From NCBI GenBank assembly GCA_038046085.1, contig JBBSWW010000003.1, positions 1-63,168 of the forward strand: 63,168 nt of DNA. Reading direction: 5' to 3'. This document shows positions 1 to 63,168 of this stretch, in pieces. The position numbers and the translations under genes were made by a program. A model generated the notes under the pieces. That model ran no database searches. It saw nothing but the letters and a program-made list of their open reading frames with translations, and had not been told where the DNA came from. How positions within the stretch are numbered: the stretch's first letter is position 1; every line of letters begins with the position of its first letter. This DNA is from Nanobdellota archaeon (GTDB taxonomy: Archaea; Nanobdellota; Nanobdellia; SCGC-AAA011-G17; GW2011-AR18).

Positions 1-167
1 TCCATGAAATACATATAGAAGGAGTATTTATTAAGGTTTTTGTATTATTATTTCAATGCTTTTTGGCTTCATTAATTTTTGCCTGTGTTTTTAGAATTTG
101 CTTTATCTCTTTTGCTGGTACCTTTTCATTTAGTTAAGTTATTAAATTTTTGTCTAATTTTTAATTT

Positions 168-812
168 ATGTCAAATGAAGAAACTTTAAGATTAAAAGTT
201 GAAGAAGCTATAGGCTTTTTAGCAGGACAATTTTATATTACAGAAGAACAACTTAAAACTTTCAGAAAACCATCATATAATGTTGCTGAGGAGATATTAT
301 TGGGAGTAGAAGGAGAGAAATCAGGACCACTAGTAGGAAAATATTCTTTCAAAGAAGCAAGATTCACTCTACCAACAAGATCATTAGAAGATTCTAAAAC
401 TATAGGACATGAAGCATCGCATTACATACATTATGAGTTAAATAAAGAATTAGTCGATAAAGTATGTAATACCAGAACACCTAATAGGTTATATTGGTGG
501 GGATGGGAATTAATAGAACTAGTAGCAGAATACGGAGGACTATTATACGGTCAGCATAAAGGAGTAGAATACAAACAATTTAGTGAAGGTATGATATCAG
601 ATGATATCCCTGGAATGAATGCACAATTATACTTAATAGTATCACAAAGAGGATATGAAAGAGCAGACCAAGCAATAAAAAAACATGGAAATAGTTTATT
701 ACCAAGACTAGCAAGAATGACAATAGAAGAATCAGAAAAATTAGGAAGAATACTACCAATAACATTCTATGAAAGAAAAATAATTCCATTAATAGATAGA
801 ATGAGAAGATAA
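168..812 (+). CDS. hypothetical protein with HExxH-like motif (possible metallopeptidase)
   Basis: 214-aa ATG ORF with host-like A-ending codons. It contains GHEASHYIH (HEASH = HExxH). No other family signature recognised. Confidence 0.5.
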   Translation: MSNEETLRLKVEEAIGFLAGQFYITEEQLKTFRKPSYNVAEEILLGVEGEKSGPLVGKYSFKEARFTLPTRSLEDSKTIGHEASHYIHYELNKELVDKVCNTRTPNRLYWWGWELIELVAEYGGLLYGQHKGVEYKQFSEGMISDDIPGMNAQLYLIVSQRGYERADQAIKKHGNSLLPRLARMTIEESEKLGRILPITFYERKIIPLIDRMRR

Positions 813-832
813 TAAAACAAATTTCTATTAAT

Positions 833-1234
833 CTAAATGTATCCATCATTAATCAAGTCATTAATAAATTTATCAAAAGATGGAGCAAGATTATATTTTT
901 TAGATTCAAAATCTTCTCTTGACATCCATTCCATTTTCTCTATTTCTGAAGATGGAACAAAAATGCCTGCGTATCTTACAAAATACAACTCAAGACGTAA
1001 AGGATTATCTGAGTGCGCGGCTTTATCTATATTGTAATTATTATAGTGAGTAAAAGACTTTAATTCTACATTGCCTTCTTCTCTTAATTCTCTTCGAAGA
1101 CATGCTTCAGTAGATTCTCCAGGTTCATATTTACCCCCAGGCTGAATCCAAAAGGGCTTCTTTTTAGGTTTAACAATAAGAAGTTTTTGATCTTCAATAC
1201 ATATAGCACCTGCTTTGATTATCAAATCTCCCAT
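833..1234 (-). CDS. NUDIX hydrolase (MutT-like)
   Basis: Nudix box GGKYEPGESTEACLRRELREEGNVEL matches GX5EX7REUXEEXGU. Size is 133 aa. Confidence 0.85.
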   Translation of the reverse strand: MGDLIIKAGAICIEDQKLLIVKPKKKPFWIQPGGKYEPGESTEACLRRELREEGNVELKSFTHYNNYNIDKAAHSDNPLRLELYFVRYAGIFVPSSEIEKMEWMSREDFESKKYNLAPSFDKFINDLINDGYI

Positions 1235-1328
1235 CTGTTCTTATTAAACTTTTTAAATATAAGCATTTCTTCACTTGAAAAGTTCTTTCAAAAAACACAG
1301 AATTACCACTAACTTAGGCTACATAATC

Positions 1329-1379
1329 TTTATAAAGTCTTGAATTAATCATAATTTAGATATAAACTTACTAGGAGGT
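1329..1379 (+). promoter_or_regulatory. TATA-like box plus Shine-Dalgarno for the zinc-ribbon gene
   Basis: TTTATAAA lies at 1329..1336. GGAGGT lies at 1374..1379, 9 nt before the ATG at 1389. Confidence 0.45.
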
Positions 1380-1388
1380 AAGAGTAGA

Positions 1389-1574
1389 ATGGGATTTAGA
1401 GAAGGCGGAAGATCAAACGGCGGTGGCCGTAGCTTTGATAGAGGTCCTAGAGAGATGCACGATGCTACATGTAGTGAATGCGGAACTCAGACAAAAGTAC
1501 CTTTCAAGCCAAAAGAAGGAAGACCAGTATATTGTAAAGATTGCTACATGAAGAAAAAAGATTCTTCAGAGTAA
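1389..1574 (+). CDS. small RGG-rich zinc-ribbon protein (CxxC-x17-CxxC domain)
   Basis: CSEC-17 residues-CKDC arrangement. The N-terminus is Gly/Arg-rich (GGRSNGGGRSFDRGPRE). It is preceded by a strong SD. Confidence 0.75.
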   Translation: MGFREGGRSNGGGRSFDRGPREMHDATCSECGTQTKVPFKPKEGRPVYCKDCYMKKKDSSE

Positions 1575-1607
1575 TAATATAATAACTTATACTTACAGAA
1601 TTCTTAA

Positions 1608-1629
1608 TTTATTTTTATTTTTTTATTTT
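1608..1629 (+). terminator. oligo-T tract downstream of the zinc-ribbon gene
   Basis: tttatttttatttttttatttt, consistent with archaeal oligo-T termination. AT-rich background makes this weak. Confidence 0.3.
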
Positions 1630-1667
1630 AAAAACATTAATAAAGTTCTAATACTTAGTTTTATATT

Positions 1668-1886
1668 ATGTGGGATCATAGTACATTAGTTTATGCAATA
1701 CTCCTTGAACAGGTTGTTGGTTCAAGAGATACAGGATGTTTTGGTAGTTTCGATACTAAATTAGATTTTAATACTTATACAATAAATGACAAGTATAGTG
1801 CACAGTCAAAAAGTGTAATTGTGAAAGTAGAGAGTTTTTATGATTCATCTACTGGAGAACCACTAATCAGAGTTTCTGATATATAG
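1668..1886 (+). CDS. hypothetical small protein
   Basis: 72-aa ORF with no motif recognised. Coding status uncertain. Confidence 0.3.
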   Translation: MWDHSTLVYAILLEQVVGSRDTGCFGSFDTKLDFNTYTINDKYSAQSKSVIVKVESFYDSSTGEPLIRVSDI

Positions 1887-1946
1887 TATATACTATTTCT
1901 TTATATAATAATTATTCTAAAATATTATCATGGAGAGTGGTTATAA

Positions 1947-2744
1947 ATGAAAAATGTAATTTTAAGTCTAATATTAATAATATTCTTAATGGGATGCACA
2001 GCAAACCAGCAAAGTGCTTCTACACAAGATGGAAGAGCAGTATTTGCAATAACAGATGCTGCGGCAGATATGAAAACAGTAACAAGTGTAAAAGTTACAG
2101 TAGATAGTGTGAAAATCCATAGCGAGACAGATGGATGGATAGATGTAACTAATACAAAACAAGAATATGATCTATTAAAATTAAAAGCAGAAGATAAACA
2201 GGCATTATTAGCAGATGCACAATTAAAAGAGGGGAACTATAATCAGCTAAGACTGGATATATCAAAAGTCATAGTAACTGACAGTACAGGAGACCATGAA
2301 GCAAAATTACCATCTGGAGAGCTAAAGATAAATGGAGAATTAACAGTAAAAGCAAACACAACATCAACAGCAACATTTGATTTTATACTAGATGAATCAT
2401 TACATATGACTGGAAATGGAAAATACATACTAGCACCAGTAATACAACTAGAAACAAGAGAGGATGCTGAAGTAAATGTAAATGATGATAATAAAGTAGA
2501 GATAAAATCTGGAAAAGTAAAAACAAATGTAAAAGTTGGAATGGATGTTAAAGGGGATGTAGGAATAGGGTTGGGAATATCTAAAGATGAGATTATAGAT
2601 ATTGATGCTGTTGGAGGATTAAAATTAGGATTGGGAGGTAACAAAGAAAAATCTAATGAAGCAAAAGCTGAATCTCAAACTTCAGTAAATGTTGATGATA
2701 AATTAGAAATAGACAGTTCATTAGAAACAGGAGTTACTGCTTAA
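1947..2744 (+). CDS. lipoprotein, DUF4382-like
   Basis: Signal peptide ends in lipobox LMGC. The body (VDSVKIH...EYDLLKL...GNYNQLRL...LPSGELKI) resembles the DUF4382 family from memory. Confidence 0.65.
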   Translation: MKNVILSLILIIFLMGCTANQQSASTQDGRAVFAITDAAADMKTVTSVKVTVDSVKIHSETDGWIDVTNTKQEYDLLKLKAEDKQALLADAQLKEGNYNQLRLDISKVIVTDSTGDHEAKLPSGELKINGELTVKANTTSTATFDFILDESLHMTGNGKYILAPVIQLETREDAEVNVNDDNKVEIKSGKVKTNVKVGMDVKGDVGIGLGISKDEIIDIDAVGGLKLGLGGNKEKSNEAKAESQTSVNVDDKLEIDSSLETGVTA

Positions 2745-2953: not shown

Positions 2954-3661
2954 TTAAATCTTCCTAACAAAGACTAAAAAAACAGTGTGTCCAAGCATCT
3001 GGTTCTTTGGACGAACTCTTAGATTATCAACAGTCCACTCTCTTTCTAATACTTCACAAACTTTCCATAAATAAAAACTAATATCTAGATGCTTAACAAA
3101 TTCCATAACCTGAGTAATAGTAGGAAGATAACAGACAATAAAACCACCAGATTTCAAAGAATCTTTAGTATGAGGAATAACTTTCCAAGGTTCTAATAAA
3201 TCTAAATGAATCAAGTCTAAATCTTTTTCATCAATACCAGAATAAATATCCTGATTCTTAATATTAACATTTAATTTAAGATTTTCAATGTTAGATTTAG
3301 CAAGATTAAAAAAATCAGGTTTAACTTCATATGATGTAACATTACAACCAACTCTAGCAAAATAAGAAGCAGTATTACCACAACCAGAACCAGCATCAAC
3401 AACATTCGAACCAACACCTAAACCTGTAGTTGTAATAATTAAACCAATATCCTTGTAATGCGCAATAGCAGGACCTCTCTTAATTTCATGAATATTATCA
3501 ATAAAAGAAGAATTAAAAACTATGAAATCCTTATCCATATTAGATTTTACAATACCTGGCTTAATATCAGATTCTTTTAAAATACCAAGATGAGAATGAA
3601 AGTCTCCCTTCTTATAATAATGAACATCTCCATTAGGATCAATAATAATCTTAGTTACCAT
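2954..3661 (-). CDS. trmI: tRNA (adenine-N1)-methyltransferase TrmI/GCD14 family
   Basis: EIKRGPAIAHYKDIGLI followed by SAM motif VVDAGSGCGNTAS. There is an N-terminal small beta domain. Size is 235 aa. Confidence 0.75.
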   Translation of the reverse strand: MVTKIIIDPNGDVHYYKKGDFHSHLGILKESDIKPGIVKSNMDKDFIVFNSSFIDNIHEIKRGPAIAHYKDIGLIITTTGLGVGSNVVDAGSGCGNTASYFARVGCNVTSYEVKPDFFNLAKSNIENLKLNVNIKNQDIYSGIDEKDLDLIHLDLLEPWKVIPHTKDSLKSGGFIVCYLPTITQVMEFVKHLDISFYLWKVCEVLEREWTVDNLRVRPKNQMLGHTVFLVFVRKI

Positions 3662-5822: not shown

Positions 5823-5956
5823 TGCGGAGAACAGGATTCGAACCTGCGAAGGCACTAAGCCAATAGATATCTCAACAATCATTATAATTGCCAGATAAAA
5901 GGTTTTCACCTGCGGCCTCTTGAGTCTATTCCGTTTGGCCGCTCCGGAATCTCCGC
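5823..5956 (-). tRNA. tRNA-Leu(CAA) with a 50-nt intron, CCA not encoded
   Basis: Acceptor stem GCGGAGA/TCTCCGC. Anticodon stem ATAGA/TCTAT with loop CTCAAGA. Long variable arm TGGCTTAGTGCC. T-arm GCAGGTTCGAATCCTGT. Discriminator A. Confidence 0.85.
5869..5918 (-). other. tRNA intron at canonical 37/38 position
   Basis: 50 nt lie between anticodon-loop G37 and A38. Intron 3' part UUGAG pairs with CUCAA of the anticodon loop and leaves a 3-nt AUA bulge (bulge-helix-bulge-like). The boundary is ambiguous by 1 nt. Confidence 0.7.
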
Positions 5957-6064: not shown

Positions 6065-6742
6065 ATGAAAAATTCTGTTATAGAACTCAAAGATGTTTGG
6101 AAAATCTATGAGATGGGTGAGACAAAAGTAGAGGCTTTAAGAGGACTTACTTTAGATATAAGAAAAGGAGAATTTGTAGCAGTACAGGGACCATCAGGAT
6201 CAGGAAAATCTACTACTTTTAATATGATAGGATGTCTTGACTTACCAACAAAAGGAAAAATATTCTTAGATGGACTTGATATAGCAAAACTGACAGAAAA
6301 TGAATTAGCACAGATAAGAGGAAAGAAGATAGGATTCATATTCCAGACTTTTAATTTAATGCCAAGCATAACAACATTAGATAATGTAACACTACCATTA
6401 ATATTCCAGGGAAACTTAAACAAAGAAAGTATACATAAGGCAAAAGAATTATTAATAAAAGTAGGATTAGGACATAGGATGGGACACAAACCAAACCAAT
6501 TATCTGGAGGAGAACGTCAGAGAGTTGCAATAGCAAGAGCATTAATAAATGATCCAGAAGTAATCCTAGCAGATGAACCAACAGGAAACTTAGATACAAA
6601 AAACGGAGAATTAATAATGAATATGCTAGGAGAATTAAATAAAAAAGAGAAAAAGACAATAGTATTAGTAACACATGAAAAAATAGTATCATCACATGCT
6701 AATAGAGTTATAAAAATAAGAGATGGGAGAGTGGAAAAATGA
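6065..6742 (+). CDS. ABC transporter ATP-binding protein (MacB/LolD type)
   Basis: Walker A GPSGSGKST, signature LSGGERQRVAIARAL, Walker B ILADEPTGNLD. Confidence 0.9.
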   Translation: MKNSVIELKDVWKIYEMGETKVEALRGLTLDIRKGEFVAVQGPSGSGKSTTFNMIGCLDLPTKGKIFLDGLDIAKLTENELAQIRGKKIGFIFQTFNLMPSITTLDNVTLPLIFQGNLNKESIHKAKELLIKVGLGHRMGHKPNQLSGGERQRVAIARALINDPEVILADEPTGNLDTKNGELIMNMLGELNKKEKKTIVLVTHEKIVSSHANRVIKIRDGRVEK

Positions 6743-8070
6743 AAAAAAGTCTATTAATAAGTATAGCATTAATGTTAATATTATTAGTAAGCTTAGTAGA
6801 TGCAAGAGTAACAGTAATATCAAAAGGAGAGGATATAAAGATAGACTTGATAAAATTTGATCCATCACCAGTAACACCAGGATCAGAGACAGAGGTAGAG
6901 TTTGAGATAACAAACCTAAGAAAAGAGACATTACCAAATTCTAATATAAAATTAGTAACAAAATTCCCATTAGAACCAGTAAAAACTGATGTTGATATAC
7001 CGGCAATAAAACCTGGAGAGAGTGTACAGTTCAGTTTCAGGTTCAAGACAAATAAAGATGCATTGGCAGGAGATTATCCAGTATCAGTACAGTTCTATTC
7101 ACCTGGATTAGAATCATTAACAAGCGAACCATTCTCAGTTCCTGTCATATTAAGAAGCAGAGCATTATCAGGAATTGGTTTTACAATAACACCTGAGATA
7201 ATAAGTCCTGGTGAGAAAGCAAATGTAAAAATAGATTTCCAGAACACAGAATTATCATCATTAGAAGATGTAGTAGTAAAACTAGATCTAAGCAATACAA
7301 CATTACCATTCGCACCAATACAGAGTGGTACAGAACAGACAATAAAGACAATAAGTCCTGGAAGTTCAGCATCATTAAATTTTGGATTGATAGTGTTTCC
7401 AGATGCAGCATCAAATGTATATAGAGTTCCTGTACAGGTAACTTATTATGATTCAACTGGAACAAAATTCACGAAAAATGAGGTAATAGGAATAGTTGTA
7501 GGAGCAAAACCAAAATATCAATTAGATCTTGAAGAGAGCACAGTATACCAGAAAGGAAAAAGTGGAAAAGTTGTATTAAGCCTATCAAACATAGGACCAA
7601 CAGACATGAAATTCACAAGCTTAACATTATCAAACTCTGAAAACTATGATGTAATCTCAAAATCAAGAGTATATGTAGGAAACTTAAAACCAGATGATTT
7701 CGAGACAGCTGAATTCAATATCTATGTAAAAAGTCCTGGAACATTAAAAGTCAATATAGAGTATAAGGATACTTTTAATAATGATTATTCTGAAACAAGA
7801 GAATTGACATTACCAGTATATGACAATAATCTGATAAACAAATATGGACTGATAACTACAGAAAGTAATGGACAAATTGTTACATTTATATTACTATTAT
7901 TCGTTATTGTTATTATAATAGGATGGGTAAAGACAAGAAGCCTATTAGAAGGAATAAAATACGCTTTCTCAACAATATTTGGAATGATAATAAAATTCCT
8001 TAAACAGTTTACCCCAACAAATATAAAAAAGAACTGGAAGACATTCAAAGAATTTGTAAAAAGACAATGA
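6739..8070 (+). CDS. S-layer-like/CARDB-type beta-sandwich surface protein with C-terminal TM anchor
   Basis: Signal peptide, then repeated roughly 100-aa beta-rich units (PGSETEVEFEITN, PGEKANVKIDFQN, GKVVLSLSNIG), then C-terminal TM IVTFILLLFVIVIIIGWV. ATGA overlaps with both neighbours. Confidence 0.65.
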   Translation: MKKSLLISIALMLILLVSLVDARVTVISKGEDIKIDLIKFDPSPVTPGSETEVEFEITNLRKETLPNSNIKLVTKFPLEPVKTDVDIPAIKPGESVQFSFRFKTNKDALAGDYPVSVQFYSPGLESLTSEPFSVPVILRSRALSGIGFTITPEIISPGEKANVKIDFQNTELSSLEDVVVKLDLSNTTLPFAPIQSGTEQTIKTISPGSSASLNFGLIVFPDAASNVYRVPVQVTYYDSTGTKFTKNEVIGIVVGAKPKYQLDLEESTVYQKGKSGKVVLSLSNIGPTDMKFTSLTLSNSENYDVISKSRVYVGNLKPDDFETAEFNIYVKSPGTLKVNIEYKDTFNNDYSETRELTLPVYDNNLINKYGLITTESNGQIVTFILLLFVIVIIIGWVKTRSLLEGIKYAFSTIFGMIIKFLKQFTPTNIKKNWKTFKEFVKRQ

Positions 8071-12364: not shown

Positions 12365-14137
12365 TTATTTCTTAACAACATCTAATTTCATATGAATATC
12401 TTTCAAGAACTCTGGAGTCCAATCCTGAGGAGAACTATCCATAGGATTTTCTGCAGATTTATTCTTAGGGAAAGCAATGACTTCACGGATATCATCAACA
12501 CCATTAAGCAAAGCACAGAATCTGTCAAAACCTAAAGCAAGACCACCATGAACTGGGGCTGAGTATTTGAAAGCATTAAGTAAAAAGTCAAACTTCTTTT
12601 CAGCTTCTTCATAAGTAAGACCAAGAACTTTAAGAGTCCTAATTTGAACATCTTTCTTATGAATCCTGATAGAACCTCCACCTAATTCAACTCCGTTAAG
12701 AACAACATCATAAGCTTTAGCACGAACTCTATAAGGATCTTTTTCTAAGTATTCAACATCTTCGTTCATAGGAGAGGTGAAAATATGATGACGAGCCTGC
12801 CATGAATTAGAATCTTCATTAAATTCAAATAATGGGAAATCAACAACCCAGCAGAACCTGAAATCATCTTTCTTCATCAAATTTAATTTTTTACCAATGT
12901 GAAGTCTTACTTGACCAAGACCAGTACAAGCTTTTTCAAATTCATCAGCAGCAAACAATAATAGATCTCCATCTTTAGAATTTGTAGATTTAATCAATTC
13001 CTTTTGAATATCATCAGAGATATACTTAACAATAGAACTCTCTAATTTATTACCTGCTATAACTTTAGCCCAAGCTAAACCTGGAAGTTTGTATAATTTA
13101 GCAACAGTAATAAGTTCTTCAATATCAGTCCTAGAGAATTTACCACAACCTGTAGCATTCAAACAATAAACAGAACCATATTTCTTATTCAAGACATTAG
13201 TGAAAACAGAGAAACTTGATTTCTTAACAATATCACTAACATTAACAAATTCTAAACCGAATCTTAAATCAGGCTTATCAGAACCATACTTAGACATAGC
13301 TTCATGGAAAGTAAGTCTCTGGAAAGGAGTTTTAATATCCTTATTAAGAACTTTCTTGAAAACATTCTTTATAAGACCTTCAACAATATTCTGGATATCT
13401 TCCTGTTCGATGAAAGACATCTCAAGATCAATTTGAGTAAACTCTGGTTGACGGTCAGCTCTTAAATCTTCATCTCTTAAACAACGAGCTAACTGGAAGT
13501 AACGATCACAACCAGCAACCATCAATAACTGCTTATACATTTGAGGAGATTCAGGAAGAGCATAAAACTTACCAGGATGAACTCTTGAAGGAACTTTGAA
13601 AACTCTAGCACCACCAGGAGTAGTCTTTACGAACATTGGGGTTTCTATTTCCATAAAATCTTGAGATGAAAGATATTCACGAGCAGCTTGAGCAGCTTTA
13701 TGTCTATTAAATAATCTATTCTGCATGACAGGACGTCTTAAATCCAAGTACCTATATTGTAATCTTAATTCTTCATTAATTTCAGCTCTATCATCAATCT
13801 CAAAAGGTGGAACTTCAGATTCGTTAATAATATTCAATGACTTACAATCAACTTCTATCTCACCAGTAACAATATGTTTATTCTCCATACCTTTTGGTCT
13901 AGTTCTTATTGAACCTGTAACCTGAATACACCATTCTCTTCTTAGCTTATCAGCATCAGGCATTTTGGTAGGATCTAATACTATTTGAGTAATACCATAT
14001 CTATCACGTAAATCTATAAAGATAATACCACCATGATCTCTCCTAGAAGCGACCCAACCACAAAGAATAGTTCCTTTCTCAATATCTTTAGAAGTTAGTT
14101 CCCCGCATGTGTGTGTTCTAAAACTAGTTTTTGACAT
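12365..14137 (-). CDS. aspS: aspartyl-tRNA synthetase, bacterial type with GAD insertion
   Basis: 590 aa. RTHTCGELT...CGWV..RRDHGGIIFIDLRDRYG, class II motif 2 FRDEDLRADRQPEFTQIDLEMSF, motif 3 GGLALGFDR, and an insertion of roughly 130 aa (PGLAWAKV...). Confidence 0.95.
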   Translation of the reverse strand: MSKTSFRTHTCGELTSKDIEKGTILCGWVASRRDHGGIIFIDLRDRYGITQIVLDPTKMPDADKLRREWCIQVTGSIRTRPKGMENKHIVTGEIEVDCKSLNIINESEVPPFEIDDRAEINEELRLQYRYLDLRRPVMQNRLFNRHKAAQAAREYLSSQDFMEIETPMFVKTTPGGARVFKVPSRVHPGKFYALPESPQMYKQLLMVAGCDRYFQLARCLRDEDLRADRQPEFTQIDLEMSFIEQEDIQNIVEGLIKNVFKKVLNKDIKTPFQRLTFHEAMSKYGSDKPDLRFGLEFVNVSDIVKKSSFSVFTNVLNKKYGSVYCLNATGCGKFSRTDIEELITVAKLYKLPGLAWAKVIAGNKLESSIVKYISDDIQKELIKSTNSKDGDLLLFAADEFEKACTGLGQVRLHIGKKLNLMKKDDFRFCWVVDFPLFEFNEDSNSWQARHHIFTSPMNEDVEYLEKDPYRVRAKAYDVVLNGVELGGGSIRIHKKDVQIRTLKVLGLTYEEAEKKFDFLLNAFKYSAPVHGGLALGFDRFCALLNGVDDIREVIAFPKNKSAENPMDSSPQDWTPEFLKDIHMKLDVVKK

Positions 14138-18946: not shown

Positions 18947-19315
18947 TTATTTATTTACTAATAATGTTCTACTTATGTCTTCTATAATAATAAAATTTCT
19001 GTTTTCTGTGTCTATACTTCCCTTTATTGTTACAACTTCTTTTGAATCTGAAAGTTGTTTTAATAGATCATTTGCTTCATGATTACGAGTTAATAAATAA
19101 CCTTCTACTGAAACTTCTTCATGATAAAGCTTCATACAATATCCTACTATTTCTCTTATTTTATAATCTTCTCGTTTTCTGTCAGTATAATCTATTTGTG
19201 CTCTAAAAATTAAACCCTCACCGTATGTGTCACCATTTTGCTGAATTATTCTTGCAATATCTTCTAATGTTATCTTTTTATATTTATCAAATTCAGGATA
19301 AAAATTCATTGCCAT
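18947..19315 (-). CDS. hypothetical protein
   Basis: 122-aa ORF with no motif. A-ending codons despite being on the minus strand. Confidence 0.45.
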   Translation of the reverse strand: MAMNFYPEFDKYKKITLEDIARIIQQNGDTYGEGLIFRAQIDYTDRKREDYKIREIVGYCMKLYHEEVSVEGYLLTRNHEANDLLKQLSDSKEVVTIKGSIDTENRNFIIIEDISRTLLVNK

Positions 19316-19396
19316 ATATTATGTAAACTCAAAAAGTTTATTAAACTATCTTCTCTTATCTTATTAATACTTATATATTCAGATTATTGTAAAAGT

Positions 19397-19804
19397 TTAT
19401 TCTTTGTTCATCAATGATCTACAAAGAGAATCTACACTTTCATTATTACAATGTTCTATATATAATGGCTTGTCAAGTTCAAAGTAAGATGCTCTTAATG
19501 GCTGATATTGTGAATCAAAAAATGTCTTAATAAAAATAATTCCCTGTCTAGTTTCACTATTTGCGAAACAAAGTCTAGTAGATTCATAAGTTGTATCTTT
19601 TTCAGCTGATCTATAATCATAATATTCACATTGCATCAATGGTAAGCCTGGTCTGTTTAAATTTTCTCTACTTACAAATGCATTATTACGTTCAGGATGT
19701 GTTCTCTTATAAAGTTGAATAGTTGTTATGCTTGATATTAAACCAGTTCCAATAGATATTCCTAGAACTATTCCTAAATTTCTTATTGATTTTTTTAAAT
19801 CCAT
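19397..19804 (-). CDS. hypothetical membrane-anchored Cys-containing protein
   Basis: N-terminal TM LGIVLGISIGTGLISSITTI. Five Cys in the ectodomain. Confidence 0.45.
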   Translation of the reverse strand: MDLKKSIRNLGIVLGISIGTGLISSITTIQLYKRTHPERNNAFVSRENLNRPGLPLMQCEYYDYRSAEKDTTYESTRLCFANSETRQGIIFIKTFFDSQYQPLRASYFELDKPLYIEHCNNESVDSLCRSLMNKE

Positions 19805-31448: not shown

Positions 31449-31946
31449 GTGGAAAAAATATTAATTGCTGGAATAGATCCTGGAACTGTAAGTGGTTATG
31501 CAATAATAGATATTGATGGAAATCTAGTATCAATAGGTTCTGAGAGAGAATTAACAACAGGAGACTTAATATTAAAGATAACAAAATATGGAAAAATATT
31601 TGCAATAGGGAGCGATGTATATCCATGTCCTAATCTAACTAATAAGATAGCAACAAGAATAGGAGCTAAAGTAATAAGTCCAGACCATGATCTAAAGTAT
31701 TTAGAGAAAATAAAAATAGTTGATACTTATTTAAAAAATCAGAAAAAAAGAATAGAGATAACAAACAAACATGAAAAAGATGCACTAGCAGCAGCATTAT
31801 ACGGGTTAAAAAGAATAAATGGGTTATTAAAAAAAATAGATGACCATCTAAAAGAACATGATAAATTATATCTTAAAGAACAAGTAAAAAGAAGAGTCTT
31901 AGTAGATAATGTACCAATAGTTGAAGCTTTGAGAGAACTATCTTAA
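31449..31946 (+). CDS. DUF460/COG2433-like RNase H-fold nuclease
   Basis: GTG start. IAGIDPGTVSGYAIIDIDGNLV resembles a RuvC/YqgF-like first strand. Family assignment from memory. Confidence 0.55.
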   Translation: MEKILIAGIDPGTVSGYAIIDIDGNLVSIGSERELTTGDLILKITKYGKIFAIGSDVYPCPNLTNKIATRIGAKVISPDHDLKYLEKIKIVDTYLKNQKKRIEITNKHEKDALAAALYGLKRINGLLKKIDDHLKEHDKLYLKEQVKRRVLVDNVPIVEALRELS

Positions 31947-32512
31947 TCATTATTTTTAATGTATCCTTTCCATTGACAAATAAAGAATAGGGTAATTATT
32001 ATACTTCCTATTAATAAAAATAAATCAATAGCGAATAATACTTCATTTGATGAATGTTTATTTATGCCCATTGTAAATAAATTTATTATAATTATAATAT
32101 AAAAAATTAATAATGCAAATATTAAAGATCTTAGGACTATTATTCCTTTAAGTTGTGTGTCTTCATTTGTTATACTATGTGCCTTATAATTAAACTTATA
32201 ATCTTCTTCTATATCTTTACAAATTTTATATTTTAAACACTTTTTCTTATTAGCTCTTTCTATCAACATCGTAAAATATATAACTATTAGAATGCCTATT
32301 ATTGATAATAAAAGTTTTGCTATAATCTCATCAAATATTATTGTTTCTGTTTTTTCTAATACTATTTTATTTAATATAATAATTGATAAACCTAATCCCA
32401 CAGAGATTAATGTCCATACCATTGTATTATAATGTTCAGCGGAATTTTGTGCTGTTTCATACTCTAATATAGCTATTTCAATATTTTTGTAATTCTTATT
32501 TTTCTTTATCAT
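31943..32512 (-). CDS. hypothetical integral membrane protein
   Basis: 189 aa with four hydrophobic segments. ATA-rich codon usage is atypical for the minus strand. Confidence 0.5.
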   Translation of the reverse strand: MIKKNKNYKNIEIAILEYETAQNSAEHYNTMVWTLISVGLGLSIIILNKIVLEKTETIIFDEIIAKLLLSIIGILIVIYFTMLIERANKKKCLKYKICKDIEEDYKFNYKAHSITNEDTQLKGIIVLRSLIFALLIFYIIIIINLFTMGINKHSSNEVLFAIDLFLLIGSIIITLFFICQWKGYIKNND

Positions 32513-53167: not shown

Positions 53168-56100
53168 ATGGTAAAGATAATTGACGAAGTAAACAAGTAT
53201 TTGCCGCAAGATGCGAATATAACAGAGACAGTATTTGAGGGAGCAAACATAGTCCTCTATACAAAGAACAAGAAATTCTTATTAGACAATCAAGGAGTAA
53301 TAAAACAGATAGTTGACAATATAAAGAAACGTGTAGAGTTAAGAGCAGATCCATCAATAGTACTGGACATAGAGGATACTAAGGAATTAATCAAGAAAAC
53401 AATATCAGCAGAGGCAGGAGAGACAGAGATAATATTTGATGTTTCAAGATCAAGAGTAATAATAGAGGCAGAAAAACCAGGAATAGCAATAGGAAAAGGT
53501 GGAGATGTATTAAAAGAGATAAAAGCAAAGACTTTCTGGACACCAATAGTAAGAAGAATACCACCAATAAGATCACAATTATTAGAGAACATAAGACAGG
53601 TATTATATGATCATTCAGAATACAGAAAAAAATTCCTTAACAAAGTAGGAAAGAGAATCTATGAAGGGTGGACAAAAACTAAAAGAGATGAATGGATAAG
53701 ATTAACTTGTCTTGGAAGTGCAAGAGAGGTAGGAAGAAGCTGTTTCTTAATACAGACACCAGAATCAACAATAATGTTAGACTGTGGATTTAATGTAGCA
53801 GCACCAAGAGAGTTTGCATTCCCATATTTAGATGTTCCAGAATTCAATATACAAGAATTAGATGCAGTAATATTAAGCCATCCACATATTGATCATTGCG
53901 GAACATTACCTTACTTATACAAAATGGGATACAGAGGACCTGTTTATTGCACAGCACCAACAAGAGATGTAGCAGCATTATTATGTCTAGATATGAGTGA
54001 TATAGCAATGAAAGAGGGAAATGATCCATTATATGATACAGGAGATGTAAAAGAGATGGTGAAACATACTATCTGCTTAGATTATGGAGAGGTAGCTGAT
54101 ATAACACCAGATATGAGATTAACATTGTACAATGCAGGACATAACCTAGGAAGTGCTATGGTACACCTGCATATAGGAAATGGATTACACAATTTCTTGT
54201 ATTCATTAGATGCAAGCACTAAAATTACATTAATAGATCCAGAAAATAATACACAATTTATTGGAATAGGAGACTTTATAGATAAACAATTTGAGGAAAA
54301 AAATGGGTTAATAATAGATAATGGGTTTGTACAAGAAAAAGCAAATACAAAAGGATATGCTACAATTGCTTTTAATAAAAAAACATTAAAAAATGAAATA
54401 GTAAATATAACAAGTTTTGTAAGACATCCAATAAATGAAGAATTATATGAAATAAAAACAGAGAGTGGAAGATCAGTAAAAGTTACAAAATCACATAGTT
54501 TATTTACAGCAAAAGATGGAAAAATACTTCCTGCAGAAGTCTCAAAATTAAAAACTGGAGATTTCATAGTAGGATCAAAAAAAATACCATCATTAAATGT
54601 TAATGAACCTATAATAGATTTAATGCCTTATTCAAAAGAACTAAGAATAAAAATCGAAGATGATGCATACATAAATAATCTTATAATCAAACATGAAGCT
54701 GAATTTTCTAAATTAGAAAACAATGATAAATTAATAGTTAAAAGTGTGTTGTTTGATTATTATAAAGGTAATTATATAAAAGATATAAGAAATAAATATA
54801 AAATACACCCAAGAAGGATAAATAGAATCTTTAAACAATTAGGATTAAAAACTCATCCAAGAGTAAAGGATTCATTGCCTGATAAAGTAAGAATAACAAA
54901 GGACTTTGCAAGATTCTTAGGATATTATATCTCAGAAGGATGGCCAAATACTAAAGACCAAACAGTAGCTGTATCAAATACTAATAAAGAAATACTAGAA
55001 GATTGTTATAACATAATAAAAAAAGAATTCGGAATTGAAGGAGATCTTAGATATCAAGATGATGTTGTATTATTTACTTCTAAACAATTAAAATCATTGT
55101 TAAGTAATGTATTAAAATGTGGAAAAGATGCTTACACAAAAAGAATACCTAAAGAGTTATTATTAACAAATAGAGATGTGCAATCAGACTTGTTATATGG
55201 TCTATTTTCAGGAGATGGTGGGATAAGAGTAAGAGAAAAAGGAAGAGAGATAAACTATGCTAGTAAATCAAAAGGTCTAATAGAGGATATTAATTTTATA
55301 TTACTACAATTTGGAATAGTACCAACAATAGAATTTAATAAGACTTCAGAAATGAATAATCTGCATATTTATAATAAAGAAAAAATTGCTGAATTCTTGA
55401 GTGAAATAAATATAAATAACTCACAGAACACACAGTTAGTAGAGTCATTACTATCATTAAAACAAAATAAGGCAAGTTTTGATATGAGAATACCAATAAG
55501 TGCACTATCACAAACCATACAAAATGATATTTCAAAAACACCATGGCAAAATGCAGAAAGCTGTGGTATACAAAAATTAGAAAATGAAAATTTAACAGAA
55601 GATGACTTAAAGTTAATAAATTCTGATCTGATGTTTGATAAAATAAAATCTATTAAACAAGTAGAATCTACAGGAAAATATGTATATGACCTAAGAGTAG
55701 ATGGATATGAAAATTTCTTAGGCGGAGATGGATTCTTATTTATGCATAATACAGGAGATTTCAATTATGAGACATCTAATTTGTTAAGTTCTTCAGAATC
55801 AAAATTCCCAAGAGTGGAATCAGTAATGATGGAATCAACATACGGAACAAAACAAGATAATAGTCCATCAAGAAAAGAGAGCGAAGATGATTTAATAAGA
55901 ATAATAAATGAGACAGCAACAGCTGGAGGAAAGGTATTGATGCCAGTATTAGGAGTTGGAAGATCACAAGAGTGCATGCTGATATTAGAGAGAGCAATGG
56001 AAGAGAAGAAAATACCGCAGATGCCAATATATGTGCAGGGAATGGTATGGGATGTTACTGCGTTACATACAGCATATCCAGACTTCTTAAGCAACAGAGT

Positions 56101-56620
56101 AAAGAAAGGAATATTCCAACGTGATCATAATCCATTTTTAAGTCCAATATTCAAGAAAGTAATATCACAAAAAGAGATGGCAGAAATCAAAGAGGGAAAA
56201 GGACCATACGTAGTAATGGCAACATCAGGAATGTTACAAGGAGGACCATCACTAGAATACTTGAAAGCATTTGCTGAGAATCCTAAAAATTGTGTAGTGT
56301 TAACATCATATCAAGGTGTTGGTAGTATTGGAAGAAGATTACAGGATGGAGAGAAAGAATTGACTTTTACTTATGGCGGATCTAAAAGAATGGAAACAAT
56401 CAAGATTAATTTGCCAATATATACATTATCAGGATTTTCAGGACATAGTAACTTTAAACAATTAGTATCATGGGTAAAGAATATAGAACCAAAACCTAAA
56501 AAGTTCATTACAATACATGGAGATTATTCAAGATGCATAGAATTAGCTTCAGTAATATACCAACAGAACAGAGTAGAGACAGTAGCTCCTAAGAATCTAG
56601 AGACAATAAGATTGAGATAA
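53168..56620 (+). CDS. aCPSF1: aCPSF1 (KH-KH-metallo-beta-lactamase-beta-CASP RNase) carrying an intein
   Basis: KH GxxG GIAIGKGGDV, SHPHIDHCG, AGHNLGSAMVHLHIGNGLHNFLY | intein | TGDFNYE, ESTYG, GHS, HGD. The host part is 634 aa. Confidence 0.9.
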   Translation: MVKIIDEVNKYLPQDANITETVFEGANIVLYTKNKKFLLDNQGVIKQIVDNIKKRVELRADPSIVLDIEDTKELIKKTISAEAGETEIIFDVSRSRVIIEAEKPGIAIGKGGDVLKEIKAKTFWTPIVRRIPPIRSQLLENIRQVLYDHSEYRKKFLNKVGKRIYEGWTKTKRDEWIRLTCLGSAREVGRSCFLIQTPESTIMLDCGFNVAAPREFAFPYLDVPEFNIQELDAVILSHPHIDHCGTLPYLYKMGYRGPVYCTAPTRDVAALLCLDMSDIAMKEGNDPLYDTGDVKEMVKHTICLDYGEVADITPDMRLTLYNAGHNLGSAMVHLHIGNGLHNFLYSLDASTKITLIDPENNTQFIGIGDFIDKQFEEKNGLIIDNGFVQEKANTKGYATIAFNKKTLKNEIVNITSFVRHPINEELYEIKTESGRSVKVTKSHSLFTAKDGKILPAEVSKLKTGDFIVGSKKIPSLNVNEPIIDLMPYSKELRIKIEDDAYINNLIIKHEAEFSKLENNDKLIVKSVLFDYYKGNYIKDIRNKYKIHPRRINRIFKQLGLKTHPRVKDSLPDKVRITKDFARFLGYYISEGWPNTKDQTVAVSNTNKEILEDCYNIIKKEFGIEGDLRYQDDVVLFTSKQLKSLLSNVLKCGKDAYTKRIPKELLLTNRDVQSDLLYGLFSGDGGIRVREKGREINYASKSKGLIEDINFILLQFGIVPTIEFNKTSEMNNLHIYNKEKIAEFLSEININNSQNTQLVESLLSLKQNKASFDMRIPISALSQTIQNDISKTPWQNAESCGIQKLENENLTEDDLKLINSDLMFDKIKSIKQVESTGKYVYDLRVDGYENFLGGDGFLFMHNTGDFNYETSNLLSSSESKFPRVESVMMESTYGTKQDNSPSRKESEDDLIRIINETATAGGKVLMPVLGVGRSQECMLILERAMEEKKIPQMPIYVQGMVWDVTALHTAYPDFLSNRVKKGIFQRDHNPFLSPIFKKVISQKEMAEIKEGKGPYVVMATSGMLQGGPSLEYLKAFAENPKNCVVLTSYQGVGSIGRRLQDGEKELTFTYGGSKRMETIKINLPIYTLSGFSGHSNFKQLVSWVKNIEPKPKKFITIHGDYSRCIELASVIYQQNRVETVAPKNLETIRLR
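54203..55750 (+). mobile_element. 516-aa intein with LAGLIDADG homing endonuclease domain
   Basis: Starts SLDASTKITL (Ser1). Block B VKVTKSHSL. LAGLIDADG motifs FLGYYISEGW and LLYGLFSGDGG. Ends VYDLRVDGYENFLGGDGFLFMHN, followed by Thr+1. Confidence 0.85.
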
Positions 56621-56702: not shown

Positions 56703-57362
56703 TTATTTAAACTTTCCATCGCCTAAATTTTGATATACTTCTGTTGTTCTTGTATATGCATCTATTTTATCATCTATATTGTGAAAAACTTTGAAAGCAA
56801 GGAATTGTGCTGAATATACATCATATAATTTTCTTGCTGTTGATTCATCAACTTCAGCTGGATTAAATTCTAGTTTTCCATCTCTATTTTTTATTTTAAT
56901 ATTAGTATTATTTTGATTATCCTGAATATCCAGCTGTAGTTCTCCAATTCTGTACCAAATAATAATGCTTGATTCATCAGTTATTGAATTATTAGCTCCA
57001 TTTCTAATCATTAATAGCTGATATATACCCAAACCACTAATGTTTTTAACCTCAAAATTGTAGTCTGTCCTTCTTTCTCCTTCTTTCTCCTTTAGGTTTG
57101 TCTTATATTGAAAACCTACTTTGTTAGCAAGGTTATGATAAACTCTTTGTTCTGCAATTTCACTTGCTCTAGAAAAAAGCTCCGGAATATCTAATCCTCT
57201 ATTGTGATTTGTAGTTAAATGGAAATCTACTAAGCTTATAGATGCGTTCTTTCTATAAAGCTCCTCTACTTTTTCCTCTATACTTCTAGCTGTTAAAAAA
57301 TATGATGCTAATCCGCCTAAAATTGCTCCTAAGCCTGCAACAATTACTGTTTTTCTTTCCAT
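56703..57362 (-). CDS. hypothetical membrane-anchored protein
   Basis: N-terminal TM TVIVAGLGAILGGLASYFL. 219 aa. Confidence 0.5.
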   Translation of the reverse strand: MERKTVIVAGLGAILGGLASYFLTARSIEEKVEELYRKNASISLVDFHLTTNHNRGLDIPELFSRASEIAEQRVYHNLANKVGFQYKTNLKEKEGERRTDYNFEVKNISGLGIYQLLMIRNGANNSITDESSIIIWYRIGELQLDIQDNQNNTNIKIKNRDGKLEFNPAEVDESTARKLYDVYSAQFLAFKVFHNIDDKIDAYTRTTEVYQNLGDGKFK

Positions 57363-59439: not shown

Positions 59440-59443
59440 AAAA

Positions 59444-59796: not shown

Positions 59797-61272
59797 CTAA
59801 TTAAAACCACTTTTGCTAAGATGACTTAATGATTCTGATAAAATATTATAATTAGGTTCATATTTTTTATAATATTCAACGAATCTTTCTTCAATAATCT
59901 TCAAAGAAATTATAGCATTAGACATAGTAGCATCTTTAATCTCATTATTGTTAATCCTAACAGCCTGTTCATAGATCTCTAAAGCCCTTAAAATAGATGA
60001 ATTGAGATACGCTAGTTCATATCTATCATAATCAATAATCTTAACATCTGAATGTTCATTAAAACTATCCCAATGCTTCTTTATTATCTCTCTTTTTTGT
60101 CCATAATCAAGGAATAAGTGCTGATCTAAAAGATTTGTATCATCAAAAACAATAGGTGATTTACGTTCTCCTTCAGTATCAAGAATAATAACACGATTCA
60201 TCTCATCTAATTTAAAATTTCTAGAATGAGCATCCTTATTATAAACCCTGATAATTCCTTCTAAACTATTAAGAGCTGGTTCTAAACTATACATGAGAGG
60301 ATCAACAAAACTTGAAGGATATAATCTAGAGATCCTTTCACGAATACTCTTAGAGATATCACGCTCAACAAAATCACCTTTAACTCTAGCATGTAATAAA
60401 CCAAGAATATCAGCAATCCTGTAAAAATCATTTACAGATACATCATTTAATTTAATCCTTTGTTCAAGAGTATTACCAGAAGCCTGTTCCATGACATAAT
60501 AAGTTTCATTATTAAATTCAATACTCCCAATAGGATTAACAGTAGAACAATCATTCCTTAATGAAATAATAGAACCAATCTGTTCAGCCATAGAAATTTC
60601 CTTAGCTAATCCATCAGATGACTGACTTTTGTAAATAATCTCAGAACCTAATAATGGATCCTCAATTGTAAAAACAGAGTTCTTATTACCTGTAATTTTA
60701 TTAACAGAACTACTTTCTAAAGCTTTTTTAGCAGCTTCTAATTTTTTCTTCCTAGAAATATCCTTATTCCCATACATAGAGTATAATCTTCCGACAAGAT
60801 ATGAGAAAGAGAAAGAATCAGCAGTAGGAAAGTTATGATAAAATGGATCCTTACAACTAGAATCAATACCATCAAGCAGTGCAAGATTAATAATATCCTT
60901 TTCTTCTTTTATTTTCTTATTAATAATACTTTTACACTTTAAATAAATAGATTTTATATTACCAAAGAAACTTAGTTTATTTTTTGTCCTAAGATCCTGA
61001 ATATTCTCTTCAAAAATATTAAAAGCTTTCCTGTAACATTGATAAGCAGATCTTTTATCATGACCATAATAAGAATCGCCTAAAGACAGAGTACGTTCTA
61101 TCTCATCACCAACATTTTCACTTAAACCAATCAATCTTTTCTTAACTTCAATGGACTTTTTATTATTTCTAGTCAATGAATAAAATAACTTTAATAAAGA
61201 GAATCTTATATATTTAGAATCAGAAGGACTATCTTGTTCCTTAACAATATCATCGAGACATGACAATGGCAT
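59797..61272 (-). CDS. protein-kinase-like fold protein with helical N-terminal domain
   Basis: IIYKSQ...KEISMAEQIG, YYVMEQASGNTL, NKDAHSRNFKLD (DxHxxN-like), VIILDTEG. Host-like T-ending codons. Confidence 0.45.
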   Translation of the reverse strand: MPLSCLDDIVKEQDSPSDSKYIRFSLLKLFYSLTRNNKKSIEVKKRLIGLSENVGDEIERTLSLGDSYYGHDKRSAYQCYRKAFNIFEENIQDLRTKNKLSFFGNIKSIYLKCKSIINKKIKEEKDIINLALLDGIDSSCKDPFYHNFPTADSFSFSYLVGRLYSMYGNKDISRKKKLEAAKKALESSSVNKITGNKNSVFTIEDPLLGSEIIYKSQSSDGLAKEISMAEQIGSIISLRNDCSTVNPIGSIEFNNETYYVMEQASGNTLEQRIKLNDVSVNDFYRIADILGLLHARVKGDFVERDISKSIRERISRLYPSSFVDPLMYSLEPALNSLEGIIRVYNKDAHSRNFKLDEMNRVIILDTEGERKSPIVFDDTNLLDQHLFLDYGQKREIIKKHWDSFNEHSDVKIIDYDRYELAYLNSSILRALEIYEQAVRINNNEIKDATMSNAIISLKIIEERFVEYYKKYEPNYNILSESLSHLSKSGFN

Positions 61273-61361
61273 TTGTTAATTAAAAATATATACTTAATAA
61301 ATATTTATACAGTAAAAATAGATAGTTTTTTAATATAAAAAATCACTAAAAACCTGAGAAG

Positions 61362-63168
61362 ATGATAAAAAAAGAGTACCTGGTCATAGTTAGTTTGCTA
61401 ATCCTATTTTTATTACTACCAAAAAATGCAATTGCTGATTTTCCAGACTGTTTAGGTGATACAACAAACGGAATATGGACCATAAGCAATACACAGACAA
61501 TAACTTCAAATCAGGTATGTTATAATATCACAATAAAAGCAGGAGGAAAACTAAGAGTGCAGAATGGTGCTATCACCTCATCAATAAACATAACTGTTGG
61601 AAACTTATCTGTGGAAAGTGGCGGAGAAATAAATACTACAGGATTTGGATATATTGGAAGCTCTACAACAGCAACAGGACCTGGAGCTGGAATAAGCAGG
61701 CGTGCTGGAGGGAGTTACGGAGGGAGGGGTGGTGCAAAACAAGAGACAAACATTGGAAATGTATACGGAAATCCATTAAGACCAACAGATCTGGGAAGCG
61801 GAGGATCGGGAAGCGGAACAACTTCAGGTTCTGGTGGTGGTGGAGCTATACTCATAAATGTAACACAGAACTTTATACTTAATGGAACGGTTGTAGCTAA
61901 TGGAAACAGTACATCTACTAATTCTAATCTTGGAGGCGGTTCTGGAGGATCAATATTAGTTTATACATATAATCTTTCAGGACTTGGGAATTTTACAACA
62001 TTAGGAGGTAAAAGTGGATCTGGTGGTGGAGGAGGAGGTGGTGGTGGAGGAAGAATAGCAGTATACTATAATTATTCAACATTAAACTTTTCAAGATCAA
62101 GTGCCGAGGGTTCAAAAGATGATACAACATATCAAGGAAGTACTGGAACATTAATAACAATAGATGTTGTCAATAATAATGCTACAATATATGGATGGAA
62201 CTGGAACAGCAGTGTAGATTTAAGCACATTCAGTAATGTAACATTCGTATCAGCAAACACAACAATAGATAATAATGATATAATAAGAATAGACAACAAC
62301 TTTCAATTCGACGGACAATCATATTTTAACTGCAGAACAAACATAAGTAAACAGATTATATTATCTGAGATAGGAACAGGAAACATCAGTTCTTATCTAT
62401 CTAATTTTAGAAATGAATGTGGAATGACAAATGTTACTATAAATACTAGCAATCCTCTATTAATTTCTGGAAATACTTTACTAAATTTTAGTAGTATTAA
62501 TTTTGATAATTCAAGTGTTGATGTCGCTATATCAAATTCAAAAATATTCTCAAACTTTAATTTCACATTAAGAAACATAACAATAGATGTAAACTCAATA
62601 ATAAACGCAACAGGAAAAGGATATTCAGGAGGAATAAGCACAGGAACAGGACCAGGAGGACCTACAAGAGGATCAAGCGGAGCAACACACGGCGGAAGAG
62701 GAATGACAGTAAGCGGAACAAACAATGATATCAACGTATACGGAAATGCGTTAAATCCTATAAATCTTGGAAGTGGCGGGAGTGGTGCAGGATCAACAAG
62801 AGGCGGAAGAGGAGGAGGATTCATATATATAAATTCAACAAATAAACTAACACTTGATGCAACATTAAGCACCGATGGCACGCAAGCTTTCGGTGGATTA
62901 ACAACAGCTGGCGGCGGTACTGGTGGATCAATACTATTATATGCATACAATATAACAGGAACAGGAAACTTCAGTGCAATAGGTGGTGAGGGTTTCAATG
63001 TCATCTCTTCAGGAGGAAGAATAGCAGTATACTATAATCATACAACAATAAACTTTTCAAAATCTAGTGTGGAAGGCACAAAACTTTCAATAAGTGGAAC
63101 ATTGCCTTTAATCCCTGCTACTGGTACTTTTATTGCTGTAGATCAGCGTTTCAATAATGCTACAATAC
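61362..63168 (+). CDS. giant secreted Gly-rich beta-helix-like repeat surface protein (5' partial, runs off the window)
   Basis: I translated 602 codons from the ATG at 61362 and found no stop. Signal peptide LVIVSLLILFLLLPKNAIA. It is absent from the ORF track because no stop lies in the window. Confidence 0.75.
   Translation, partial: MIKKEYLVIVSLLILFLLLPKNAIADFPDCLGDTTNGIWTISNTQTITSNQVCYNITIKAGGKLRVQNGAITSSINITVGNLSVESGGEINTTGFGYIGSSTTATGPGAGISRRAGGSYGGRGGAKQETNIGNVYGNPLRPTDLGSGGSGSGTTSGSGGGGAILINVTQNFILNGTVVANGNSTSTNSNLGGGSGGSILVYTYNLSGLGNFTTLGGKSGSGGGGGGGGGGRIAVYYNYSTLNFSRSSAEGSKDDTTYQGSTGTLITIDVVNNNATIYGWNWNSSVDLSTFSNVTFVSANTTIDNNDIIRIDNNFQFDGQSYFNCRTNISKQIILSEIGTGNISSYLSNFRNECGMTNVTINTSNPLLISGNTLLNFSSINFDNSSVDVAISNSKIFSNFNFTLRNITIDVNSIINATGKGYSGGISTGTGPGGPTRGSSGATHGGRGMTVSGTNNDINVYGNALNPINLGSGGSGAGSTRGGRGGGFIYINSTNKLTLDATLSTDGTQAFGGLTTAGGGTGGSILLYAYNITGTGNFSAIGGEGFNVISSGGRIAVYYNHTTINFSKSSVEGTKLSISGTLPLIPATGTFIAVDQRFNNATI
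61621..63168 (+). repeat. tandem ~966-nt (322-aa) coding repeat units
   Basis: aagaatagcagtatactataat recurs at 62051 and 63017. The protein units GxGY..G...GPG...NVYGN.L.P..LGSGGSG...GGSIL.Y.YN..G.GNF...GG...GGRIAVYYN.(S/T)T(L/I)NFS.SS.EG align. Confidence 0.8.
62022..62051 (+). repeat. (GGN)10 poly-Gly tract
   Basis: ggt ggt gga gga gga ggt ggt ggt gga gga. Confidence 0.9.

Follow-up and report, generated by a model that had tools for sequence, protein, structure and literature searches.

Strand-locked synonymous codon usage in a Woesearchaeota genome and single-polarity chromosomes among its relatives

What, if not the gene itself, decides which of several synonymous codons a gene uses? 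The question is raised by a 63,168-nucleotide stretch of DNA from a groundwater archaeon of the Woesearchaeota (DPANN), positions 1 to 63,168 of contig JBBSWW010000003.1 in assembly GCA_038046085.1 (hereinafter, the window; the contig is denoted C3, and the parent assembly, denoted G000, consists of 40 contigs with a total length of 801,723 bp and 29% GC). An earlier examination of these letters alone (the sequence-only reading) held that plus-strand genes favor codons ending in A or C and minus-strand genes favor codons ending in T or G, and placed the window within one replichore, with a leading-like composition of the minus strand. The analysis described here confirms that codon choice follows the DNA strand; the effect is real, very strong, and both stronger and more widespread than that reading supposed. 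At the level of whole replicons, the pattern found in relatives is different from the one that it envisaged.

Synonymous codon choice and the DNA strand

Genes in the window were defined as the longest non-overlapping open reading frames (ORFs), and every codon was counted. The 30 plus-strand genes have a mean gene-sense A/T skew of +0.48 at four-fold degenerate sites, with A exceeding T in 27 of them, and the 32 minus-strand genes have a mean of -0.41, with T exceeding A in 26. The pooled four-fold counts are 2191 A and 622 T in the plus-strand genes and 676 A and 2026 T in the minus-strand genes; among isoleucine codons, the former contain 738 ATA and 97 ATT, and the latter 249 ATA and 640 ATT. 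Plus-strand genes ending codons in A and minus-strand genes ending them in T jointly make the plus DNA strand A-rich whatever the direction of the gene: measured on that strand, the four-fold A/T skew is +0.56 from plus-strand genes and +0.50 from minus-strand genes. The claim that the bias belongs to the strand and not to the gene is therefore upheld by exhaustive per-gene counts, in which the skew, instead of being independent of gene orientation, depends strongly on it (Mann-Whitney p = 1.3e-9; point-biserial r = 0.79). The same polarity is detectable independently of gene calls, in the bulk composition of the window (AT skew +0.119, GC skew 0.002), with a positive AT skew in 20 of the 21 3-kb bins irrespective of local gene orientation. 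The two spot counts in the sequence-only reading also hold: the 23 ATT and one ATA reported for the gene that it named trmI (2954..3661, minus strand; gene-sense four-fold AT skew -0.65) were recovered exactly, and in the plus-strand gene at 6739..8070 (four-fold AT skew +0.63; 34 ATA and 4 ATT overall), 12 ATA codons precede the first ATT where about eleven had been claimed. The window (1..63168) is a single-polarity domain, its plus strand A-rich at unconstrained sites; the reported absence of a switch within 63 kb was borne out and extends to the rest of the uniform, 100.6-kb contig C3, in which all 10-kb bins fall between +0.40 and +0.80.

The pattern spans the genome. Each G000 contig longer than 4 kb has one dominant polarity, with short interrupting islands in C14, C15, C20, C26, C32 and C37, and no clean switch within a contig was found across the 0.8 Mb. 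In the class of genes that have the A-rich strand as sense (n = 405), the four-fold site frequencies are 0.672 A, 0.237 T, 0.051 G and 0.040 C, and the other class (n = 453) has 0.263 A, 0.645 T, 0.035 G and 0.057 C; free sites on one strand are thus composed of approximately 0.66 A, 0.25 T, 0.05 G and 0.04 C, with the mirror image on the other strand. The sizes of the two classes reveal neither an orientation bias nor a leading-strand excess of genes. When the contigs are oriented by polarity, one strand of the assembly contains 312,622 A and 246,690 T (AT skew 0.118), with a GC skew of 0.000. Exact overlaps of 55 nt, leftovers of the assembly graph, connect seven pairs of contig ends, and polarity is kept across all six informative joins. 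These overlaps are usable for scaffolding the assembly; one of them ties C33 to the left end of C3. C32 and C29, also joined through a 55-nt overlap, hold the one polarity change of the assembly that looks clean. A segment of about 1.7 kb, with a reverse-transcriptase-like gene pair, has an A-rich top strand; next come a cytosine-methyltransferase-like gene and some 7 kb in which the top strand is T-rich. The region is probably a mobile or defence island and not a landmark of replication.

The bias is a property of the DNA and not of translation. At four-fold sites, the fraction A/(A+T) on the A-rich strand in a given dinucleotide context is the same whether that strand is sense or antisense (0.76 and 0.79 for C_A, 0.90 and 0.89 for G_A, 0.67 and 0.67 for T_C). 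The strand-locked AT skew declines as sites become less free to vary: from about 0.45 where codons are four-fold degenerate and 0.28 over third positions as a whole, it drops to 0.08 between genes, and codon positions 1 and 2 retain 0.05 and 0.02, respectively. The sign of the intergenic skew does not differ among convergent, divergent and tandem spacers, and its low level is common to every spacer type and length class. The bias spills over into proteins: between the two gene classes of G000, the amino-acid ratios are 1.31 for Thr, 0.74 for Ser and 0.79 for Phe. Selection on codons or mRNA, be it translational selection, tRNA supply or purine loading, could claim the small component that is locked to genes (third-position GC skew, GC3, of +0.16, G exceeding C in gene sense in both orientations). 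As the cause of the A/T choice, it is very improbable: read in gene sense, that choice changes sign with gene orientation, and on the DNA its sign is constant; the same DNA context yields the same composition in sense and antisense, and all types of intergenic DNA carry the same sign of skew. Given that gene orientation is balanced and the signal resides at synonymous sites, the asymmetry must be mutational.

The primary asymmetry is A versus T, and the impression of an 'A/C versus T/G' dichotomy follows from it. On the A-rich strand, depletion of T raises C/(C+T) and excess of A lowers G/(A+G) in two-fold codons, such that the share of TTC is 0.45 in the A-rich-sense genes versus 0.31 in the other class and the share of AAG is 0.18 versus 0.34. 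The statement that both A and C accumulate on the plus strand at third positions accordingly stands for A, for two-fold codons and for all third positions pooled, where the strand-locked GC3 component is -0.08, and fails for C at four-fold sites, where the A-rich strand has G in excess of C (skew +0.12 to +0.24), opposite to the two-fold codons.

Relatives, whole chromosomes and the replication origin

We surveyed one locus in each of 31 related genomes, with a strand-locked skew of at least 0.15 at four-fold sites as the cut-off, and 26 bacterial loci as controls processed with the identical script. The cut-off is reached in 20 of the 31 relatives, with at least 0.3 in six; in the bacterial loci, the median strand-locked skew is 0.03 and the pattern is locked to genes. 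G000, with about 0.5, and G044, a member of the same family, with 0.49, lie at the top of the range. The closed replicon CP066683.1 (G001; 736,802 bp, labelled 'chromosome') was read completely and has a single polarity. Its genes are split evenly (395 plus, 395 minus), and on the plus strand, the four-fold AT skew is +0.14 from plus genes and +0.25 from minus genes, with four-fold GC skews of -0.24 and -0.12, respectively; 59 of 60 25-kb bin values have one sign, A exceeds T in 590 of 693 genes, and the longest run of opposite polarity comprises six genes. A single strand of this replicon contains 267,315 A and 237,883 T (AT skew +0.058) and 103,480 G and 128,024 C (GC skew -0.106), so that Chargaff's second parity rule is violated over its entire length. 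In the rows covered of a tabulation of 49 archaeal chromosomes, whole-strand skews are about 0.013 or less (PMC2780954), and the skews of CP066683.1 are about 5-10 times those tabulated values. Two further near-complete contigs were sampled: JANQNC010000001.1 (G159; one MEGAHIT contig of 1,301,350 bp, 100% complete) is positive in 10 of 10 windows, in both gene orientations, and CAYITG010000001.1 (G081:C1; a SPAdes contig of 755,958 bp) is negative in 20 of 20. The group is not uniform: sampling of the closed genomes G065, G154 and G174 showed no strand-locked skew, and G035 and G307 display a partial or weak sign change near cdc6, such that no-skew, partly bipolar and single-polarity states all occur.

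These are metagenome-assembled genomes (MAGs), and CP066683.1 holds one 100-N gap, which might raise the suspicion that the pattern arose artificially during assembly or binning, or from gene calls or the orientation of contigs. Such an origin of the pattern is extremely improbable: it recurs in three long sequences from three projects that used three assembly routes (curated, MEGAHIT and SPAdes) and in about 20 further MAGs, the bulk AT skew in the window is seen without gene calls, and the bacterial controls run through the same script turned out gene-locked, not strand-locked.

Orc1/Cdc6, PolD and PolB were sought in G000, and all are present. The single good Orc1/Cdc6 gene (C31:751-1959) precedes the genes for PolD DP1 and DP2, a linkage that is also found in Euryarchaeota. 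The 473-bp spacer 5' of this gene (C31:278-750, outside the window) is the candidate origin; its elements were delineated from an alignment across eight genomes of the family, after a regular-expression scan for origin recognition box (ORB) motifs had been dropped as too crude. The order is an inverted ORB (reverse complement, GTCCAnnGGAAAcAAAGGT), two mini-ORBs (TTTCnTATGGAA), an unwinding element with 95-97% AT, and two forward ORBs (TTCCAnnGGAAATnnnGGTGT). Judged by this alignment, the spacer appears to be a canonical archaeal origin that is conserved in the family. A divergent second Orc1/Cdc6 paralogue (C39:6933-7955, 357 aa, 35% identity to the main copy) has similar counterparts in about 10 relatives, and the polarity is unchanged around the C39 copy. 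The ORF for the PolD large subunit (C31:7521-12533) encodes 1671 aa, several hundred residues above the usual length, and probably carries an intein.

Origins with an inverted ORB normally load two helicases and fire in both directions, and the standard explanation for strand-locked codon usage is bidirectional replication from one origin, with opposite polarity in the two replichores. In this model, which is that of the sequence-only reading, the window would lie inside one replichore bounded by the origin and the terminus. The canonical appearance of the cdc6-adjoining origin is what the model expects; both contig polarities occur in G000, although the orientation of contigs is arbitrary; the sign changes near cdc6 in G035 and, weakly, in G307; and a DPANN archaeon of the Forterrea with a bacterial-type cumulative GC skew has been published (PMC5905446). 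Across the origin itself, however, no member of the family shows a polarity flip. Polarity runs unbroken, in both gene orientations, through the cdc6 origin of nine relatives (G044, G147, G001, G062, G075, G148, G109, G087 and G149), and in G000, the gene to the left of the origin has 24 A and 6 T on the top strand, matching the rest of C31 and contrary to the expectation for two replichores. Apparent sign switches at cdc6 in G065 and G122 were considered and rejected: they result from the divergent orientation of genes whose bias is gene-locked. A clean switch is likewise absent from the contigs of G000, from the fully read CP066683.1 and from the sampled windows of the 1.30-Mb and 0.76-Mb contigs. 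We therefore consider it unlikely that the window lies in one of two opposing replichores, and this part of the sequence-only reading is not sustained.

The companion claim, that the minus strand has a G+T-rich, leading-like composition, fares no better. Of G and T, only T is in excess on the minus strand: the window as a whole has a GC skew of 0.002, and the four-fold sites of this strand are C-rich. Gene content gives weak indications. The sense strand of the ribosomal-protein L3 operon is the A-rich strand in five of five genomes, which points weakly against a leading role of the T-rich strand; core or conserved genes show a slight excess on the A-rich strand (p = 0.02); small-subunit rRNA genes have mixed orientations relative to polarity; and the strand class of orthologues is conserved at 65-67% in comparisons with three relatives, a result that loses significance when operon-like units are collapsed. 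At the cdc6 steps in G081 and G035, the more T-rich strand is the one that would lead away from the origin.

Possible causes of the asymmetry

In the best reading of these data, what shows as two codon dialects is an asymmetry of mutation between the DNA strands across the whole genome. We favor a link of this asymmetry to replication, with each chromosome acting as a single replichore, an explanation short of proof to which we assign a probability of roughly 0.5. Under this explanation, the chromosome would be copied in the same direction every time, or almost every time; one strand would then constantly be the one that is more exposed or more prone to error.

A different process that always exposes the same strand, such as strand-displacement or rolling-circle-like replication, known from mitochondria, plasmids and some viruses, or the regular transfer of one defined strand between cells, would have a similar outcome. 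The single polarity over the whole replicon and the violation of Chargaff's second rule in CP066683.1 resemble mitochondrial DNA, the magnitude of the four-fold skew lies within the mitochondrial range, and in CAYITG010000001.1 (G081), the skew is largest just past cdc6 and smallest just ahead of it, reminiscent of a gradient in time spent single-stranded. Such a process is nonetheless improbable, and somewhat more so than two replichores: the fully read CP066683.1 shows no origin-anchored gradient, the replisome is that of a normal archaeon, with Orc1/Cdc6, PolD, PolB and a canonical origin, and we know of no cellular chromosome of 0.7-1.3 Mb that replicates by strand displacement or a rolling circle.

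The nature of the mutations may be narrowed down. In a genome this AT-rich, transitions cannot shift the purine:pyrimidine ratio of a class of sites, so that an A:T ratio of about 2.6:1 requires asymmetric transversions. The T-rich strand of G000 has less G than C at four-fold sites, a weak indication that both purines are lost to T on this strand. Such a loss is expected if A is inserted opposite purines that have been oxidised or turned abasic on the more exposed strand and have escaped repair, and this signature fits the apparent lack of ExoIII-type and EndoIV-type apurinic/apyrimidinic (AP) endonucleases in G000 and G044, the two members of the family with the strongest skew: at the level of Pfam families, neither the ExoIII type (PF03372) nor the stand-alone EndoIV type (PF01261) was detected in either genome, and PF03372 is present in the more weakly skewed members G109, G087, G062 and G075. 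The association is suggestive, a lead from two genomes and not a result. Other repair genes do not track the skew: the family-4/5-type uracil-DNA glycosylase (PF03167) is absent in 10 of the 11 Nanoarchaeia genomes tested, independently of skew, and the presence of HhH-GPD is patchy with respect to skew strength. PolB was found in all 11 genomes. In the most skewed of these, G000, G044 and G147, it has 758-773 aa and scores 123-141 bits against PF00136, compared to 810-848 aa and 200-256 bits in most of the others; the three proteins may belong to a different PolB subfamily.

A more comprehensive proposal, which we put forward tentatively and hold somewhat less probable than its denial, is that many Woesearchaeales and related Nanoarchaeia copy their whole chromosomes one way, or in some manner that leaves the same strand exposed every time, although they possess a canonical Orc1/Cdc6 origin, and that in extreme lineages including G000, loss of AP-site repair has driven neutral sites to the 2.6:1 ratio of A to T.

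Several observations weigh against one-way copying and its proposed mutational basis. The origin of G000 has the canonical inverted-ORB layout, and to its left only one 90-aa gene is available; the assembly is 82% complete and consists of 40 contigs without order or orientation. In relatives, the skew of G081 steps from -0.12 to -0.40 near cdc6, with the same sign, that of G035 goes from +0.2 to about -0.05, and G307 shows a weak change; from these steps, a conventional two-fork component exists in the group. The intergenic skew is about five times lower than that at four-fold sites. Intergenic GC content is 0.17-0.26 versus 0.09 at four-fold sites, that is, 2-3 times higher, which implies that intergenic DNA is not neutral, and we attribute the weak skew to constraint, as an explanation short of proof. 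Flanking-base context was tried as an alternative cause and rejected: four-fold sites flanked by A or T still have A/(A+T) of 0.69-0.78. Finally, the repair-gene correlation rests on two genomes and breaks outside the family, where G147 has EndoIV and a skew of 0.45 and G154 lacks EndoIV and has no skew; and the sign of the G/C skew in G044 is opposite to that in G000, such that no single mutational signature covers all genomes.

Individual genes, known systems and implications

The bacterial-type aspartyl-tRNA synthetase gene aspS (12365..14137, minus strand; gene-sense four-fold AT skew -0.67) encodes a protein with 63-75% identity to homologs within Woesearchaeota and 46-50% identity, over the full length, to the best matches outside, which come from Firmicutes (Clostridia). 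These similarities suggest an old transfer from bacteria and place G000 in Woesearchaeota; the gene has shifted completely to the T-ending dialect of its strand. The aCPSF1 gene (53168..56620, plus strand) contains an intein at 54203-55750, and the polarity is present in both parts, with 173 A and 36 T at four-fold sites of the extein (skew 0.66) and a somewhat weaker bias in the intein (101 A and 36 T, skew 0.47). The genes that depart from the polarity are ORFans and one Fic/DOC gene. The latter (Pfam Fic, E = 5.8e-18) and an adjoining ORFan, at 41749..43229 on the plus strand, have four-fold AT skews of -0.01 and -0.38 and are probably a recent acquisition or a recent inversion. Two small minus-strand ORFans at 18947..19804 have plus-strand AT skews at third positions of -0.17 and -0.05, and two others, also on the minus strand, at 31943..32512 and 56703..57362, have reversed polarity, with gene-sense four-fold AT skews of +0.44 and +0.31, respectively; these four match no Pfam family. 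Recent arrival or inversion would explain all the off-polarity genes of the window.

The only tRNA gene in the window, at 5823-5956 on the minus strand (Rfam, 38 bits), is 134 nt long, a length that implies an intron. ARAGORN detected five tRNAs across the 0.8 Mb of G000 and none in the window; most tRNA genes of this genome must be intron-bearing or otherwise non-canonical.

Strand-specific codon usage that stems from replication-associated mutation bias is a feature of Borrelia burgdorferi and Treponema. The comparison of the window with Borrelia-type bacteria drawn in the sequence-only reading is right in kind, with the strand of the gene setting the synonymous codons and the bias spilling over into amino-acid composition, and the bias is, as that reading also held, unusually strong for a genome of archaeal type, here one of the Woesearchaeota. 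Unlike those bacteria, which combine G/C and T/A skew with a G+T-rich leading strand, a reversal at the origin and terminus and a strong excess of genes on the leading strand, G000 has an almost pure A versus T asymmetry with genes distributed evenly between the strands, and its relatives show no reversal at the origin or elsewhere. Strand-specific codon usage has also been described in Lawsonia (PMC2671203) and Chlamydia (PMC2089121).

In organelles, the extreme skew of Galdieria mitochondrial genomes has been discussed in connection with unidirectional replication (in the parts covered of PMC4316638 and PMC7487498). The heavy and light strands of animal mitochondrial DNA and, as far as these sources were covered, Galdieria mitochondria share with the replicons of the relatives, as far as these were read, a polarity over the whole replicon, along with a broken second parity rule; four-fold skews of about 0.5 are a further common feature. 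Mitochondrial genomes are tens of kilobases long, with a special mode of replication and mostly one coding strand, whereas the replicons considered here are cellular chromosomes of 0.7-1.3 Mb, in which genes are distributed evenly between the orientations and a canonical Orc1/Cdc6 origin is accompanied by PolD and PolB.

Among archaea, Pyrococcus has a GC skew that switches at the Orc1/Cdc6 origin. Archaeal skews have been described as weak (mean SkewI 0.27) and bipolar, with gene orientation rather than mutation proposed as the cause (bioRxiv 10.1101/2023.11.15.567178). G000 and its relatives share with Pyrococcus and Forterrea (PMC5905446) a cdc6-linked origin with ORB repeats and a measurable strand asymmetry; unlike in those archaea, their skew is located at synonymous sites, does not depend on how genes are oriented and is far stronger, and in the relatives it is not bipolar.

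The single polarity along the whole of CP066683.1 is also shared with certain plasmids and huge phages, which are mobile elements and viruses. Their monotonic cumulative skew is reportedly taken as a sign of unidirectional replication. No report of a single-polarity pattern in the main chromosome of any cellular organism was found in the literature searched, nor was the pattern found there in work on skew, unidirectional replication or exceptions to the parity rule in Woesearchaeota, Nanoarchaeota or DPANN, although an earlier description elsewhere is possible; the paper behind the NC_groundwater genomes does not mention skew.

The strength of this asymmetry, which is that of mitochondria, makes it a counter-example to the view that archaeal skew is weak and driven by gene orientation. 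For practical purposes, the validation of closed MAGs by cumulative skew assumes a peak and a trough and would wrongly flag such genomes, and the strand dependence of codon and amino-acid composition can mislead phylogenies as well as codon-based predictors of expression or horizontal gene transfer in this group. If the proposal of one-way or one-strand-exposing replication holds true, these archaea would be the first cellular organisms with a single-replichore main chromosome that, taken whole, breaks Chargaff's second parity rule, and in the extreme lineages the proteome would be written in two codon dialects. If the single polarity in the relatives stems from one-way replication, it would show a eukaryote-like replisome running a circular chromosome in this manner in uncultivated DPANN archaea.

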